The notes below the pieces were generated by a model, which did no database searches, had not been told where the DNA came from, and was given only the letters and a program-made list of their open reading frames with translations. A stretch of 64,000 nt of DNA, taken from positions 96,569-160,568 of the forward strand of contig JBGVCT010000016.1 of NCBI GenBank assembly GCA_045118975.1, written 5' to 3'. The DNA is from Bacilli bacterium. GTDB taxonomy: Bacteria; Bacillota_I; Bacilli_A; RFN20; DUOF01. How positions within the stretch are numbered: position 1 is the first letter of the stretch; every line of letters starts with the position of its first letter. A program made the position numbers and the translations under genes. Positions 22,768 through 28,040 of the stretch are shown here, piece by piece.

Positions 22768-23001
22768 ATGGAAGATGAGATTATTAAGTATCAAAAGAAA
22801 CTAAAAAAATGGATCATGAAAGATAATTGGGATGATATTGCAGAGAGATTGTCTGATTCGTTTATGAGTATCATTACGATTGTTATGAATGCCAAAAGTG
22901 AGAAAGATGTTTCTCCATTAGTATATAGAAATATTGAATATACCTTAGAAAAAATAGAGTCAATTAATAAGTCTTTAAAAAAAGGAACTAGAAGGAGATA
23001 A
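22768..23001 (+). CDS. Hypothetical protein
   Basis: 77-aa ORF with upstream TATAAT. Confidence 0.6.
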   Translation: MEDEIIKYQKKLKKWIMKDNWDDIAERLSDSFMSIITIVMNAKSEKDVSPLVYRNIEYTLEKIESINKSLKKGTRRR

Positions 23002-23003
23002 TA

Positions 23004-23522
23004 ATGTTTAATATAGAGGAAATGATTAAGCATGAATTTGCTTTGCTTAAAGAAAATAGTGAGAAAGATAATGATAAATCATTAAATTATAAAGCAAGGG
23101 TTAAAGTGTATAAGTATTTAAGATTTTGTGTGGAACATAAAACAAGAGAAATGTCTTATAAAGAATATAGTGATTATATGAGACTTGAATCTAGTATCTT
23201 GTTTACGGATTTAACTTACAGAGCGAGAAGATCACTAAGGAATGGTTATGATCATTTATATAATGAGTTTCAACCTTTATTTAAAACTTTAACTAATGAA
23301 GAGATTAAAGATATATGTAATAAGTGTTTGGCTTTTTCAAAAGATATAACAAAGTTTGAAGATTTAGAATGCTATTTAAAATATGAACCAGTTAAAACAT
23401 ATGCCAGATTTATTGCTAATAGATACAAGCCAATACTTGATCAATATAAAAAAGAAGATTTAGCTTCTTATTGTGATGAAATTTTAGATAAGTCTAGAAA
23501 AACTATTAAAGGTAGGGTATAA
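23004..23522 (+). CDS. Hypothetical protein
   Basis: 172 aa; RBS AGGAG; followed by a terminator hairpin. Confidence 0.7.
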   Translation: MFNIEEMIKHEFALLKENSEKDNDKSLNYKARVKVYKYLRFCVEHKTREMSYKEYSDYMRLESSILFTDLTYRARRSLRNGYDHLYNEFQPLFKTLTNEEIKDICNKCLAFSKDITKFEDLECYLKYEPVKTYARFIANRYKPILDQYKKEDLASYCDEILDKSRKTIKGRV

Positions 23523-23604
23523 ACCCTACTTTTTTTATTAATAATTAGGGCTTATTCTTTTAAGAGGGTAATTTTATCATTAAAATTAAAATGTGGTGAT
23601 TTAT

Positions 23605-26229
23605 ATGAAGGATTTTAGTAAAACTAAATTTAAATGGACATTTAGAACATATCAACAAAGGGTGTTGGATAATAGTAAGAAATATTTAGATAATAAGAAA
23701 ATACATGTAGTGGCTGCTCCAGGTAGTGGTAAAACCATTTTGGGACTTGAATTAATTTCTAGACTTAATTCGCCATGTATTATTTTATCACCTACTGTTA
23801 CTATAAGAGATCAATGGCAAGATAGATTCCAAGAGGCTTTTTTAAATGAAGGAGAAGATATAAAGGATTATTTTTCTAATGATCTAAATAATATTCAACT
23901 TATGAATACTATTACTTATCAAGCTCTCCATAGTGCTATTAATAATGTTAGTATTGCTGATGAGGATGAAGAGTTAGATTATAGTCATTTAGATTTATTT
24001 AAAATTGTAAAAGAGAAGAAGATTACAACCATTTGCTTAGATGAAGCGCACCATCTTCAAAATGAATGGCAAAAAGCTTTAGAAAAGTTTATTAAGGGAT
24101 TAGAGGGTAAGGTTAATATTGTGGCTCTTACTGCTACTCCTCCATATGATGCAAGTGAGGAAGAATGGAATAGATATATTGGTATTTGTGGTGAGATTGA
24201 TGAAGAAATATTTGTTCCAGAACTTGTTAAACAAAATACATTGTGCCCTCATCAAGACTATGTTTATTTTAACTATCCTAGTAAAGAAGAAATTGATGAT
24301 TTTAAAGAATATAGAAGTAAAGCTTATATGGCTTTAGATGAACTTGTCTCTACTACAACTTTTGCTAAACTATATAGACAAGTTAATAGTAGAAACAATT
24401 TTAATTATGGAAAAATTTATAAAGATACAAAGGGTTATACAGCCTTACTATCTTTATTTGAATATGCAAAACTAAGTGTAGATAAAAAGATAGTCAAAAA
24501 TATGTGTGGGGATAAGGAACTTGAAGAACTTAGTTTAGCAAATGCAGAGGGTGCAATTAGATTTATATTAAATACTGATGAGTTAGATGAATTAGAAAAG
24601 GAAGAAATATTAAATATCTTTAAAAAATATTCTCTTGTTAATAGAGGAAAGGTAAGTTTGGATTTAAATGAAAAGTTAAGAAAGAAACTTGTTTCCTCAG
24701 TTGGTAAGTTAGAGAGTATTGAAAAAATTGTTGTTAGTGAATTTGAGGCATTGGGCAATAAACTTAGAATGCTTATACTTACCGATTTTATAAAAAAGGA
24801 ATCTATTGGTGATATAGGTACAGATTGTAAGTTTGCAAATATTAGTATTGTTACTATATTTGAAAAGATTAGAAGAGCTAATACAGGTGTTAAACTAGCA
24901 GCATTATCTGGTGGACTAGTTATTCTTCCTGTGAATATGCAACCAATATTAGAAAAGGATTTTGGATTAACTAAAAAGGATATTAGTTTTAAGCAAATTA
25001 ATGACACAGAATATGCTCAATGTGATATCAAGGGTACTAATAGAGACAAAGTTACTTTGATTACAGAATTATTCAAAAGAGGGGATATTGAAGTATTAGT
25101 TGGTACTAAGTCTTTACTTGGTGAAGGTTGGGATTCTCCTTGTATTAACTCGCTTATTTTAGCTAGTTTTGTTGGTAGTTTTATGTTATCAAATCAAATG
25201 AGAGGTAGAGCTATAAGAATATTTAAAGATGATCCAAATAAAGTAAGTAATATTTGGCATTTAGTTACCCTTGAACCTAGTTATATTTTAGATAATGATA
25301 AAAACATTAATAATGAAAATAGTATTGTTTCTTATGATTATAATACTCTTTCTAGAAGGTTTAATTGTTTTGTTGGGCCAAACTATGAAAAAGGTGTAAT
25401 TGAGAGTGGTATGCCTAGAATGACTTGTATCAAAGGCCCATATAACAAAGAGGGCGTTGATGCAATAAATGCTGAAATGATTAGGATGTCATTAAATAGG
25501 AAAGAGTTAAAGAATATTTGGACTAGAGCATTGGGTGGAGATGGTAAATTGTGTCTTATCAATGTTGTTTCAAAACAAAAAAGATTACCAATTGTTATGC
25601 CACTTGTTTCTCTTGCTAAGGCTTTGGGATATAACTTAGCATATATAATTCCTTTGTTAATTTTATATTTGGCTACAAATAATCTTATTTTAACTCTAAT
25701 TATAGGAGTTATTTGTTTTTGCTCGTTATTTAAAAAGACAATGGGACATTTATTTTTATTCTTTAATCATATAACAAGCAAACGCTCAATTAAGGGAATG
25801 TCCTTTATTATACTTAACTCACTAAAGAGCATTCAAAAGGTTGATTATAAGGGTAAATTAAAAATTGTCGAAAGTGATGATAAGAAGGCATTTGAAATTG
25901 GTCTTGATCATGCTTCTTTTGAAGATGAAAGAACTTTCAATGAGGCTTTAAGAGAATTTTTCTCACTAGTTGAAGATCCTAGATATATCATCATCAGAAA
26001 AAATATTTTTAAGAAAAGAGACTTTAGGGTTAGCTTTGCTCTTCCAAATATTTTAGGGGACAAAAGAGAACATGTAATGATGGTTAATTATTTTTTGAAG
26101 AAAAATATGGGAGTAATGGATATTGTATATACTAGAAGTGTATATGGTAAGATTAATATTTTGCATTATATTACTAATTCTTATGTTGTAAGAAGTGATA
26201 AGGTGGAAAGTAAACATAAAGTTATTTAA
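23605..26229 (+). CDS. SF2 (DEAD/DEAH, ResIII-like) helicase/ATPase with C-terminal TM hairpin
   Basis: AAPGSGKT, ILSPT, LDEAHH, LTATPP, LLGEGWD, QMRGRAIR; hydrophobic hairpin near residues 680-715. Confidence 0.85.
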   Translation: MKDFSKTKFKWTFRTYQQRVLDNSKKYLDNKKIHVVAAPGSGKTILGLELISRLNSPCIILSPTVTIRDQWQDRFQEAFLNEGEDIKDYFSNDLNNIQLMNTITYQALHSAINNVSIADEDEELDYSHLDLFKIVKEKKITTICLDEAHHLQNEWQKALEKFIKGLEGKVNIVALTATPPYDASEEEWNRYIGICGEIDEEIFVPELVKQNTLCPHQDYVYFNYPSKEEIDDFKEYRSKAYMALDELVSTTTFAKLYRQVNSRNNFNYGKIYKDTKGYTALLSLFEYAKLSVDKKIVKNMCGDKELEELSLANAEGAIRFILNTDELDELEKEEILNIFKKYSLVNRGKVSLDLNEKLRKKLVSSVGKLESIEKIVVSEFEALGNKLRMLILTDFIKKESIGDIGTDCKFANISIVTIFEKIRRANTGVKLAALSGGLVILPVNMQPILEKDFGLTKKDISFKQINDTEYAQCDIKGTNRDKVTLITELFKRGDIEVLVGTKSLLGEGWDSPCINSLILASFVGSFMLSNQMRGRAIRIFKDDPNKVSNIWHLVTLEPSYILDNDKNINNENSIVSYDYNTLSRRFNCFVGPNYEKGVIESGMPRMTCIKGPYNKEGVDAINAEMIRMSLNRKELKNIWTRALGGDGKLCLINVVSKQKRLPIVMPLVSLAKALGYNLAYIIPLLILYLATNNLILTLIIGVICFCSLFKKTMGHLFLFFNHITSKRSIKGMSFIILNSLKSIQKVDYKGKLKIVESDDKKAFEIGLDHASFEDERTFNEALREFFSLVEDPRYIIIRKNIFKKRDFRVSFALPNILGDKREHVMMVNYFLKKNMGVMDIVYTRSVYGKINILHYITNSYVVRSDKVESKHKVI

Positions 26230-26251
26230 AAAGTGCTTTTTGGCACTTTTT

Positions 26252-26311
26252 TAAATGTCTACTGATATTCGACATTTACTAAATTGAAAATAAATTTATA
26301 GATGGTATAAT
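26252..26311 (+). promoter_or_regulatory. Inverted repeat (candidate operator) plus sigma-A promoter
   Basis: TAAATGTC-N11-GACATTTA (26252-26278); TTGAAA-16 bp-TATAAT with extended TG (26284-26311). Confidence 0.55.
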
Positions 26312-26337
26312 TCTAGGTGTGGGGAGGTAATTGATAA

Positions 26338-27639
26338 ATGAATGATTATGGTTTTGGAGAGAGAATATATAAACTTAGAAATAAGTTTAAGATTTCTCAA
26401 AGTGAGTTAGGTAGTATGGTTGGAGTGTCAAATAAGGCGGTAAGTAAATGGGAAACTGGTGCTAGTAAACCCAGTATTAATGTGATTAATAAACTAGCTA
26501 CTATATTTCGAGTAAGTGTAGATGAATTACTAAATGATGAAGTTGAACATCAAATTACTAAAATAGTTATTACAGGAGGTCCATGCGCTGGTAAAACTAC
26601 TGCACAAAGTTGGATACAAAGCGAGTTTACTAAGAAAGGATATCAAGTAATATTTATAAGAGAGGGTGCTACAGATATTATTAATTCTGGATTAAATCAT
26701 GATGCACTTACTAATAATAAGGATTTCCAAAAAGCGATTTTAAAATATCAACTAGAAAGAGAAAATATCATATATGAAGCTTGTAAGAAGCTAAAAAACA
26801 ATAAAGTATTAATAGTTTGTGATAGAGGAGCTTTGGATGGTAAATGTTATATGTCTAATATCGAATTTAGACAAATGTTAAAAGAGTGTAATACAGATGA
26901 AATTGAATTAAGGGATGGATATGATGCAGTATTTCATCTTGTTAGTGCTGCTAAGGGTGCAAAAGAGTGTTACACTTTAGAAAATAATACTGCTAGAAGT
27001 GAAAGTGTGGAACAAGCCGCCATTGCAGATGATAAAATTATAGCGGCCTATACAGGACATCCACATTTTAGAATTATTGATAACTCAACAGATTTTAAAA
27101 CTAAAATGCTAAGATTAGTAAGTGAAATTTCAGCATTTTTAGGAGAACCAGAACCATTTGAAATTGAAAGAAAGTATTTAATCGATTACCCAGATACTAA
27201 ATACCTAGAGAGTTTAGAAAATTGCGATAAGGTTGAGATTATTCAAACTTATTTGTTAAGTGATGATAAAAACAAAGAGATAAGAATTAGACAAAGAGGA
27301 AAAGATGGTAGTTATATATACACTCAAACTGTTAAAGAAACAGTAAATGATGTAAAAAGAATAGAAAGAGAAAAGAGATTAACTAAAGAAGAGTATTTAG
27401 AGTTACTTATGAGTGCTGATCCTGATTTGAGACAAATCAGAAAGACTAGATATTGCTTGTCTGAAAATGGATATTATTATGAAATAGATATTTTCCCATT
27501 CTTCAAGGATAAGGCAATTATGGAAATAGAGCTTAAGGATGAGCAAGAAAAATTTACATTCCCTAAATTTATTAAGGTTATAAAAGAAGTGACAGATGAT
27601 ATTAACTATAAAAATCATTCTTTAGCTATGATTAAATAA
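26338..27639 (+). CDS. XRE HTH + NadR/TTD14-like P-loop + CYTH domain fusion
   Basis: SQSELG...VSKWETG HTH; ITGGPCAGKTT, CDRGALD; CYTH EIERKYL, RIR, RKTR, YEID, MEIE. Confidence 0.82.
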   Translation: MNDYGFGERIYKLRNKFKISQSELGSMVGVSNKAVSKWETGASKPSINVINKLATIFRVSVDELLNDEVEHQITKIVITGGPCAGKTTAQSWIQSEFTKKGYQVIFIREGATDIINSGLNHDALTNNKDFQKAILKYQLERENIIYEACKKLKNNKVLIVCDRGALDGKCYMSNIEFRQMLKECNTDEIELRDGYDAVFHLVSAAKGAKECYTLENNTARSESVEQAAIADDKIIAAYTGHPHFRIIDNSTDFKTKMLRLVSEISAFLGEPEPFEIERKYLIDYPDTKYLESLENCDKVEIIQTYLLSDDKNKEIRIRQRGKDGSYIYTQTVKETVNDVKRIEREKRLTKEEYLELLMSADPDLRQIRKTRYCLSENGYYYEIDIFPFFKDKAIMEIELKDEQEKFTFPKFIKVIKEVTDDINYKNHSLAMIK

Positions 27640-27649
27640 GAGGAAATAT

Positions 27650-27910
27650 ATGAATTATAATTATGAAGTTTTTTATGCTTATAAAACTAAACCACTTACT
27701 GGTTATGGTAAGGTAAGCGTGATATATATTGATGTTAATGATAAAAGTTATATCTTCAAAGAAGATATAGATGAAAGAAATCTTATTAGCTATGATAGCG
27801 AGGGGAATGAATATTATCCAATAGAGGTGAGTATAGAAATATTTAACATGCTTGTTGAGGGTGTTATAAAGATGGGATACTTAAAAACTATTGAAGAAAA
27901 TGAAATATAA
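27650..27910 (+). CDS. Hypothetical protein
   Basis: 86 aa; RBS GAGG; follows the CYTH fusion gene after 10 bp. Confidence 0.65.
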   Translation: MNYNYEVFYAYKTKPLTGYGKVSVIYIDVNDKSYIFKEDIDERNLISYDSEGNEYYPIEVSIEIFNMLVEGVIKMGYLKTIEENEI

Positions 27911-27914
27911 ATGT

Positions 27915-27943
27915 TTGACAGTATTTTGAATATGTGTTAACAT
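27915..27943 (+). promoter_or_regulatory. sigma-A promoter of the rplU operon
   Basis: TTGACA-17 bp-TAACAT with extended TG. Confidence 0.7.
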
Positions 27944-27947
27944 ATTG

Positions 27948-28040
27948 GCGTTGTGTCTCCATGTGGAGCTACAACCGCACAAAAAAGGTCTAAAAAGTAT
28001 ATATACTTTACCTTAATGGCGAGTCTTAGTGCCGTTTTAA
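27948..28040 (+). ncRNA. L21 leader (ribosomal protein autoregulatory leader)
   Basis: GC-rich hairpin GTTGT...ACAAC plus ACCGCAC and GGCGAGTC elements directly 5' of rplU; family match recalled, not computed. Confidence 0.65.

Follow-up and report, generated by a model that had tools for sequence, protein, structure and literature searches.

The 64,000-nucleotide stretch of DNA analysed here, referred to as the window, comes from a Bacilli bacterium (GTDB lineage Bacteria; Bacillota_I; Bacilli_A; RFN20; DUOF01) and spans positions 96,569 to 160,568 of the forward strand of contig JBGVCT010000016.1 in assembly GCA_045118975.1. It contains a gene, called the regulator below, whose product joins an N-terminal helix-turn-helix (HTH) domain of the XRE (Cro/C1) type to an AAA_28 P-loop kinase-like domain and a C-terminal CYTH, or triphosphate-tunnel, domain. 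Between an upstream helicase gene and the regulator lie a terminator-like hairpin, a perfect inverted repeat that encloses a smaller conserved box, and a sigma-A-type promoter; a short open reading frame (ORF) follows the regulator on the same strand (Table 1). The gene product is probably an autoregulated one-component enzyme-regulator, in which the fused enzyme domains serve as the sensing part.

The three-domain fusion reported by the first-pass annotation, which had only the letters and their translations to go by, was borne out by profile and structure comparisons. Pfam HTH_3 matched residues 10–64 (E = 9e-14), and the same region matched the P22 C2 repressor in sequence (E = 8.5e-9), with structures of restriction-modification (R-M) controller (C) proteins among the weak matches. 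The AlphaFold model of the protein (mean pLDDT 81) superposed on P22 C2 over 61 residues with an rmsd of 0.7 Å and 44% identity in Foldseek. Pfam AAA_28 covered residues 75–255 (E = 8.6e-22); this domain is also weakly similar to dTMP kinases (Pfam, 1.3e-5; TIGR00041, 1.1e-7), and its nearest folds in Foldseek are thymidylate and adenylate kinases. Residues 275–431 found their best match in NeuTTM, the inorganic triphosphatase NE1496 (PDB 2fbl and 3typ), by sequence (E = 6e-7 and 1e-7) and by fold (Foldseek, E = 2e-10); the Pfam CYTH model (PF01928) stayed below its gathering score here and is recorded for many orthologs at 60–68% identity. In an alignment of 23 orthologs, N32, K33, S36, W38, and E39 of the recognition helix are invariant, as are Walker A (GGPCAGKT, residues 80–87) and Walker B (LIVCDRG, residues 158–164). 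The ExExK motif, the RxR pair, the K/R residues, and the ExE motif of NeuTTM align with E275-x-E277-x-K279, R316 and R318, K369 and R371, and E396 and E398, all invariant in the same orthologs except E277 (≥90%). Catalytic motifs are therefore kept in both enzyme domains, and the tunnel domain appears catalytically intact as far as its residues tell. NeuTTM is nevertheless a single-domain enzyme with 27% identity to this region, and its substrate specificity cannot be transferred.

The intergenic region contains the perfect inverted repeat with 8-bp arms, 11-nt spacer, and end 5 bp before the −35 element that had been described from the sequence: TAAATGTC occupies 26252–26259 and GACATTTA 26271–26278, and the −35 element starts at 26284. 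Perfect repeats with 8-bp arms and spacers of 0–20 nt occur at 1.8 per kb in this genome (30% G+C). The expectation is thus about 0.2 in an intergenic region of this size (108 bp), and taken by itself the 8-bp repeat is not significant. What makes it so is its inner part, which is conserved across orthologs. This inner part, the 17-bp box TCTACTGATATTCGACA, consists mostly of the 11-nt spacer together with the innermost bases of both arms and shares the dyad at 26265. Its half-sites, TCTAC and TTCGA, have centres 10 bp apart. Only a 92%-identical ortholog of the same genus shares the outer arms (TAAATG/CATTTA), and on sequence grounds the perfect repeat extends the box in this lineage alone. 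The candidate operator of the first-pass annotation thus holds as a conserved element at the gene's own promoter, with the determinant shifted from the 8-bp outer arms to the inner box. The 3′ base of the upstream hairpin overlaps the left outer arm. This hairpin has a folding energy of −13.3 kcal/mol (z = −4.5; no shuffled sequence was as stable) and is present in the 92%-identical ortholog with a changed loop (GTGC-TTTTTG-GCAC versus GTGC-TTTCGG-GCAC); a scan for consensus terminators did not list it.

Table 1. Positions of the features discussed; numbers without a prefix are window positions, and numbers with an L prefix are positions in loci of other genomes
Feature	Position	Strand	Basis or remark
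Terminator-like hairpin and T-run after the upstream helicase gene	26220-26260	+	RNA fold
Perfect inverted repeat TAAATGTC-N11-GACATTTA	26252-26278	.	Dyad at 26265
Predicted operator box TCTACTGATATTCGACA, 17 bp	26258-26274	+	Consensus TCTACYnnnnTTCGAYA
Sigma-A-type promoter: −35 TTGAAA (26284-26289), 16-nt spacer, extended −10 TGgTATAAT (26303-26311)	26284-26311	+	11/12 consensus plus TG
Ribosome-binding site GGAGG, 10 nt 5′ of the ATG	26323-26327	+	Read from the sequence
Regulator ORF	26338-27639	+	433 aa
XRE/Cro-C1 HTH domain, residues 1-66	26338-26535	+	Pfam HTH_3, P22 C2 match
AAA_28 P-loop kinase-like domain (NadR-RNK/TTD14-type), residues 75-255	26560-27102	+	Pfam AAA_28
CYTH/triphosphate-tunnel domain, residues 275-431	27160-27630	+	NeuTTM alignment, Foldseek
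86-aa ORF, 10 nt after the regulator stop	27650-27910	+	Partner slot
rplU promoter TTGACA-17-TAACAT, then L21 leader (27963-28036)	27915-28036		Leader: Rfam RF00559, 50.5 bits
Examples of families A and B	L067:2566-3159, L088:5334-5954, L089:5333-6964		Downstream of the regulator

The box, with the consensus TCTACYnnnnTTCGAYA, stands out when the 140 nt upstream of 80 orthologs (54–92% identity) are aligned, and a G-rich block occurs in the orthologs at an offset matching the GGAGG ribosome-binding site. A 23-column matrix made from 65 distinct sites was scanned over both strands of the 80 loci (609,693 bp). It returned own-promoter sites in 66 of the 80 loci and nine other sites, so the conservation that had been proposed as a check of the repeat holds for the inner box, whereas the outer arms are confined to the genus. 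Eight of the nine additional sites stand at the promoter of a unit that contains the regulator. Five of them lie 650–730 bp upstream of it, before a co-oriented preceding gene that encodes the S-component of an energy-coupling factor (ECF) transporter in at least four instances. It is thus the promoter of the whole unit, rather than the start codon of the regulator, that the box accompanies. Three are single cases, namely a second tandem paralog, a mis-set start, and an extra upstream copy in locus L027. The ninth (15.2 bits) is inside an ORF of locus L077.

The architecture of these promoters is regular. The distance between box and −35 element is 8–9 bp in 63 of 68 distinct ortholog promoters, with intervening bases that are not conserved, and the box never overlaps the core promoter. 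The −35 hexamers match the consensus at 4.0 of 6 positions on average and the −10 hexamers at 5.3 of 6; TATAAT occurs in 34 of the 68, and 55 reach at least 9 of 12. Perfect palindromes of the form TCTAC-N5-GTAGA in L040, L074, L090, L142, L146, L156, and L164 identify the box as a pseudo-palindrome, and the 10-bp spacing of its half-sites fits a predicted binding by an XRE dimer. Two full boxes are arranged in tandem at L027:3863-3940, with starts 52 bp apart (about five helical turns), which suggests cooperative binding or looping in some species.

Whether the box is bound by the HTH of the same protein can be judged from homologs that lack this domain. We assembled 80 metagenome loci, none of which had contributed to the matrix, sorted them by the presence of an in-frame HTH before the AAA_28-CYTH core, and counted a box where a site of at least 14 bits lay within 170 nt of the start. 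The box was found at 18 of 32 HTH-bearing genes and at 0 of 40 HTH-less homologs (Fisher p ~1e-8). Among the HTH-bearing genes below the threshold, weaker variants occur at six (such as TTCACC, GGAGAC, or a GTAGA right half of lower score), the box is displaced further upstream at two, and none is seen at five. This contrast is the strongest computational evidence that the HTH recognises the box, and binding is predicted from it. On two related human-gut metagenome contigs (L097:1171-1560 and L100:1171-1560), an in-frame stop interrupts the last HTH helix at the same codon (..KLMALF*VSVDD..). The box is still present upstream, intact in L097 and as TCCAC in L100. The stop could mean that the HTH is decaying, that the gene has been split, or that the codon is recoded.

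A reading in which the repeat and box are not the site of this HTH, and instead arose by chance, belong to the terminator, or serve another regulator, is therefore very improbable. It could draw on the chance expectation for 8-bp repeats and on the overlap of the left outer arm with the hairpin base. Against it, the inner 17 bp are kept at a fixed offset from the ~30% G+C genome to visibly G+C-rich promoters with unrelated upstream genes. The box also follows the operon promoter when the gene order changes, and within the metagenome set it reaches 14 bits only where the HTH is present.

The site is highly specific within its own genome (1.07 Mb). The exact repeat is unique; its sole one-mismatch variant is located inside a 587-aa ORF, and the two-mismatch sites do not have the TCTAC/TCGA core. 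The genome scan for repeat variants proposed at the outset thus recovered the known site as the only exact one, and a wider regulon defined by the outer arms was rejected, as the one-mismatch variant is intragenic and the two-mismatch variants are coreless. By the matrix, the regulator's own promoter (23.5 bits) is the only strong site, and the next (17.8 bits) falls within a coding sequence. A weak intergenic site outside the window, TTCTACCAATAAGAGAC (contig C13:23943-23965; 12.7 bits), precedes a gene for a PHP-domain phosphoesterase. Its spacing to the −10 element is unlike that of the regulator promoter, and as a second target it is probably a chance match.

Variation among paralogs and orthologs hints at a link between the recognition helix and the right half-site. 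HTH residue 32 (codon 26431–26433) may vary together with box positions 12–15: where N32 is replaced (by D, G, S, A, or P), the right half-site is more often divergent. A residue other than N stands at this position in each of the six genome loci that carry TTCACC and in two metagenome loci whose right half is TTCACC. By a hand count that ignores phylogeny, TCGA is kept in about 41 of 50 N32 proteins. One genome carries three regulator paralogs in tandem (L016, equivalent to L008, L014, and L013; genome G010, contig C49:16282-20316), with 51–66% identity to the query. Every copy is preceded by a separate promoter with a different version of the box (TCTCTT-AAA-AAGAGA, TCTACTTATATTAGATA, and TCTACTAATAAGAGATA), and the recognition helix of the middle one is divergent (NSSNISKWE).

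We propose that a dimer of the P22-C2-like HTH would bind the TCTAC-N5-TTCGA box at 26258–26274, one helical turn upstream of the −35 element, and that the bound protein would control its own short operon, consisting of the regulator and the 86-aa ORF. The AAA_28 and CYTH domains would form the enzymatic and sensing part, and binding or turnover of a phosphorylated small molecule would set the affinity for DNA, as NAD/ATP do in NadR and biotinyl-AMP does in BirA. This ligand is probably nucleoside-, nucleotide- or vitamin-like, and the P-loop domain, through its weak resemblance to thymidylate kinases, suggests that the acceptor is like a nucleoside or nucleotide. Other species would import the ligand via a dedicated ECF S-component encoded in the regulator operon. 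The presence of the cis-element at the gene's own promoter argues for autoregulation. The autoregulation suggested by the first-pass annotation is thus upheld by the position of the box at the gene's own or operon promoter and by its dependence on the HTH, while binding itself is what we infer.

The sign of this regulation is less certain. We lean modestly toward negative autoregulation, since the core promoters are of good quality by themselves, and repression would perhaps operate by blocking the region of the UP element or the C-terminal domain of the RNA polymerase alpha subunit. Alternatively, the same protein and operator could act as a positive autoregulator, bound at about −53 in phase with the −35 element and recruiting RNA polymerase, with the alpha C-terminal domain as one possible contact. 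Such action would resemble the distal-operator step of R-M controller proteins, themselves XRE dimers. The rigid phasing of box and −35 element, in 63 of 68 promoters and never overlapping the core promoter, suggests a contact between protein and polymerase, and the only moderate −35 hexamers and the C-protein structures among the weak HTH matches agree with this. However, the −10 hexamers are near consensus and many of these promoters, including that of the window, should fire unaided. A second, promoter-proximal operator of the kind used in C-protein switches was also not seen in the promoters compared, where the only additional site is the tandem upstream one in L027. We regard activation as a possible but tentative alternative.

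Several observations weigh against the proposed enzyme-regulator, or against its repressor form, and should be considered together. The box extends from about −61 to −45, outside the core promoter, which is unusual for a simple steric repressor, and its position and fixed spacing would be just as suitable for an activator. The right half-site varies and the left one does not, a pattern that a symmetric dimer would not simply predict. The matrix was built from the same own-promoter sites that its scan recovers; independent of it are only the nine additional sites, the scan of the own genome, and the metagenome set. On the side of uptake, the S-component scores below the NCBIfam cut-offs for FolT and RibU, and no riboswitch was found near it. 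The genome of the window organism (85% complete) yielded no S-component homolog, so the uptake link cannot be shown in this organism.

The genes that accompany the regulator provide further context. The next downstream gene is co-directional and no more than 60 bp away in 35 of 71 genome loci. In 14 of 72 genome loci and in eight metagenome loci, the regulator has an ECF S-component as a same-strand neighbour. This S-component is full-length (Pfam ECF-ribofla_trS, E = 3.5e-16), had no relative in the PDB, and belongs to a rare subfamily (3 of 399 sampled Clostridia). Two further families occur directly downstream of the regulator, family A in nine genome loci, with an invariant DEAEWH..SHE motif, and family B in six, and the two are fused in L089. 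Neither has a Pfam match or a significant sequence match in the PDB. The model of family A is confident and all-helical (pLDDT 83, pTM 0.78), and a search of the PDB with it gave no fold match (best E = 1.5). Within the metagenome set, the S-component, family A, or family B adjoins 14 HTH-bearing loci and no HTH-less locus. In the window, the 86-aa ORF occupies the slot that elsewhere holds the S-component or family A or B, and it is probably co-transcribed with the regulator. It is kept at the same position in a species of the same genus (58% identity), had no match in Pfam, NCBIfam, or PADLOC, and is unrelated to S, A, or B by BLAST. Stand-alone homologs of the S-component (55–56% identity) occur in two genomes (L179:928-1500 in G153 and L180 in G183) between dapA and murC, a context that was uninformative about the substrate. 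The intergenic region of about 570 nt before them contained no Rfam match and no box, and both genomes also encode an HTH-less AAA_28-CYTH gene elsewhere.

Alternatively, the locus could be a conflict or mobile-element module, with an XRE repressor, an NTPase, and a cyclase-like CYTH domain serving a variable downstream effector rather than metabolism. The full-length fusion is patchily spread (8 of 61 relatives; 3 of 301 sampled Clostridia), and the downstream gene may be the S-component, family A or B, or the 86-aa ORF. The window places the fusion in an accessory stretch beside a ResIII/DEAD helicase with a weak PADLOC match to PbeA (E = 1e-9, confined to residues 15–243 of the N-terminal helicase part). 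We nevertheless consider this explanation improbable. PADLOC saw only generic HTH-region matches in the regulator (RmrA, capH, control protein) and no match in the small neighbours, and membership in a known anti-phage defence system was rejected on this basis. The commonest partner is the ECF S-component, a nutrient-uptake part, and the AAA_28-CYTH core is housekeeping-like and forms 1,268 clusters that mostly lack the HTH. The terminator-like hairpin separates the helicase from the regulator, and the helicase is not a neighbour in other lineages.

Comparison with characterised systems places the regulator in the AAA_28-CYTH (TTD14-like) family, judging by its domains. TTD14 of Drosophila has Walker A at residues 73–80 with a conserved proline at the third position, Walker B (hhhhDxG) at 152–158, and a CYTH domain at 279–437 (PMC4624897). 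By these published motif coordinates, the order of P-loop and CYTH parts is collinear with that of the regulator within a few residues, which supports the TTD14-like architecture that the first-pass annotation named for this pair. TTD14 is a GTP- and phospholipid-binding protein with a role in channel trafficking, and unlike the regulator it has no HTH. Most bacterial members are two-domain AAA_28-CYTH proteins of about 360 aa that likewise lack the HTH which the regulator adds.

A tandem of P-loop kinase and triphosphate-tunnel domain is also found in Arabidopsis TTM1 and TTM2 (PDB 7z67; Foldseek, 411 columns, E = 8e-8, with a low global TM-score of 0.23). The tunnel domain of AtTTM1 packs into the substrate site of the kinase and has been proposed to regulate it (PMC9582702), an arrangement that offers a possible model for cross-talk between the two enzyme domains of the regulator. 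AtTTM1 differs in that its kinase is UCK-like rather than AAA_28, its tunnel is inactive whereas the regulator keeps the catalytic residues, it is membrane-anchored, and it has no HTH.

The first-pass annotation had also likened the protein to NadR. NadR of Enterobacteria and Haemophilus combines an HTH with an NMN adenylyltransferase and a ribosylnicotinamide kinase, and its enzyme part doubles as the sensor. The likeness stands as an analogy: in both, a Cro/C1-type HTH at the N-terminus is joined to a nucleotide-handling enzyme part with an AAA_28 domain, and both are linked to vitamin-type uptake, through PnuC for NadR and through the ECF S-component for orthologs of the regulator. Membership in the NadR family, however, was rejected. 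Neither Pfam nor NCBIfam gave an NMN adenylyltransferase match in the regulator, whose AAA_28 domain directly follows the HTH; the NCBIfam NadR models did not match, and only a sub-threshold NadS match was seen on the HTH. The regulator further differs by its appended CYTH domain, its TCTAC-N5-TTCGA operator, and its hosts, which are gut Bacillota.

Other enzyme-repressors and XRE repressors offer more distant parallels. BirA controls the ECF S-component gene bioY in Firmicutes. Like BirA and the RbkR-type proteins, in which a cofactor-salvage enzyme with a DNA-binding domain represses the genes of its own pathway or uptake, the regulator may couple enzyme and operator; the resemblance is an analogy only, as the enzyme folds are unrelated and the HTH belongs to another class. 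With the P22 C2/lambda-type and R-M controller XRE repressors, the regulator shares the fold and sequence of the HTH and a predicted dimer on a pseudo-palindrome of about 17 bp beside its own promoter. Compared with these repressors, it has another operator sequence, one site instead of an array, and, at the C-terminus, a pair of enzyme domains where they have a domain for dimerisation or cleavage.

The family is widespread and, as far as the literature search reached, unstudied. A word-index search with the protein returned more than 6,500 sequence clusters, and relatives occur in at least 591 genome stretches, with each species represented by one genome. A search with only the enzyme core, residues 70–433, gave the 1,268 clusters mentioned above at E ≤ 1e-30. 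Most carriers are Clostridia of the gut and rumen or Bacilli with small genomes; the cultured Anaerostipes butyraticus JCM 17466 (locus L088) is also among them. NCBI labels a relative only as "AAA family ATPase", and a full-text literature search found no paper that joins CYTH with XRE or with AAA_28. Of the concern that the fusion might be common and already characterised, only the first half applies, with at least 591 species against no characterisation in the literature searched. Within these bounds, it represents a third enzyme-fused regulator architecture after NadR and BirA.

Such regulators have been informative before, as NadR- and BirA-like fusions were past keys to vitamin and cofactor salvage pathways. 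The operator of the regulator is sharply delimited and its regulon very small. Its recurring partners are an uncharacterised S-component and two families without known relatives, and its core of P-loop kinase and triphosphate tunnel has been conserved in organisms as distant as bacteria and insects (TTD14). Finding the ligand could reveal a salvage route relevant to auxotrophic, small-genome gut bacteria such as that of the window. We tentatively suggest, as a bolder and rather doubtful extension, that the AAA_28-CYTH core is an enzyme, so far unrecognised, that carries out two steps on a new metabolite of nucleoside, nucleotide or vitamin type, to which the S-component and the accessory families A and B would be dedicated. 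If so, the operator would be a direct handle for ligand screening and could reveal the biochemistry of the whole family, including invertebrate TTD14. A nucleoside operon in a Bacilli genus (g3) was considered and rejected, as the neighbours there are MgtE, RDD, NERD, and Ddl with only one PNP/UDP-family phosphorylase.

Downstream, the regulator operon ends at the rplU promoter, and the rplU-ysxB-rpmA operon starts right after the 86-aa ORF, with no terminator evident between this ORF and the rplU promoter. Upstream, positions 22768–26229 encode a 77-aa ORF and a 172-aa ORF, both without a family, and the 878-aa ResIII/DEAD-Helicase_C protein, which is extended far beyond the helicase part at its C-terminus and includes a hydrophobic stretch there. 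This trio, set off from the regulator by the hairpin, is syntenic in a genome of the same genus (L015) and not elsewhere. A second species of the genus retains only an 82-aa C-terminal CYTH fragment (L012; genome G002, contig C15:52990-53238) with 56% identity and an internal stop, located outside the syntenic site, and the regulator gene is apparently being lost in that lineage.

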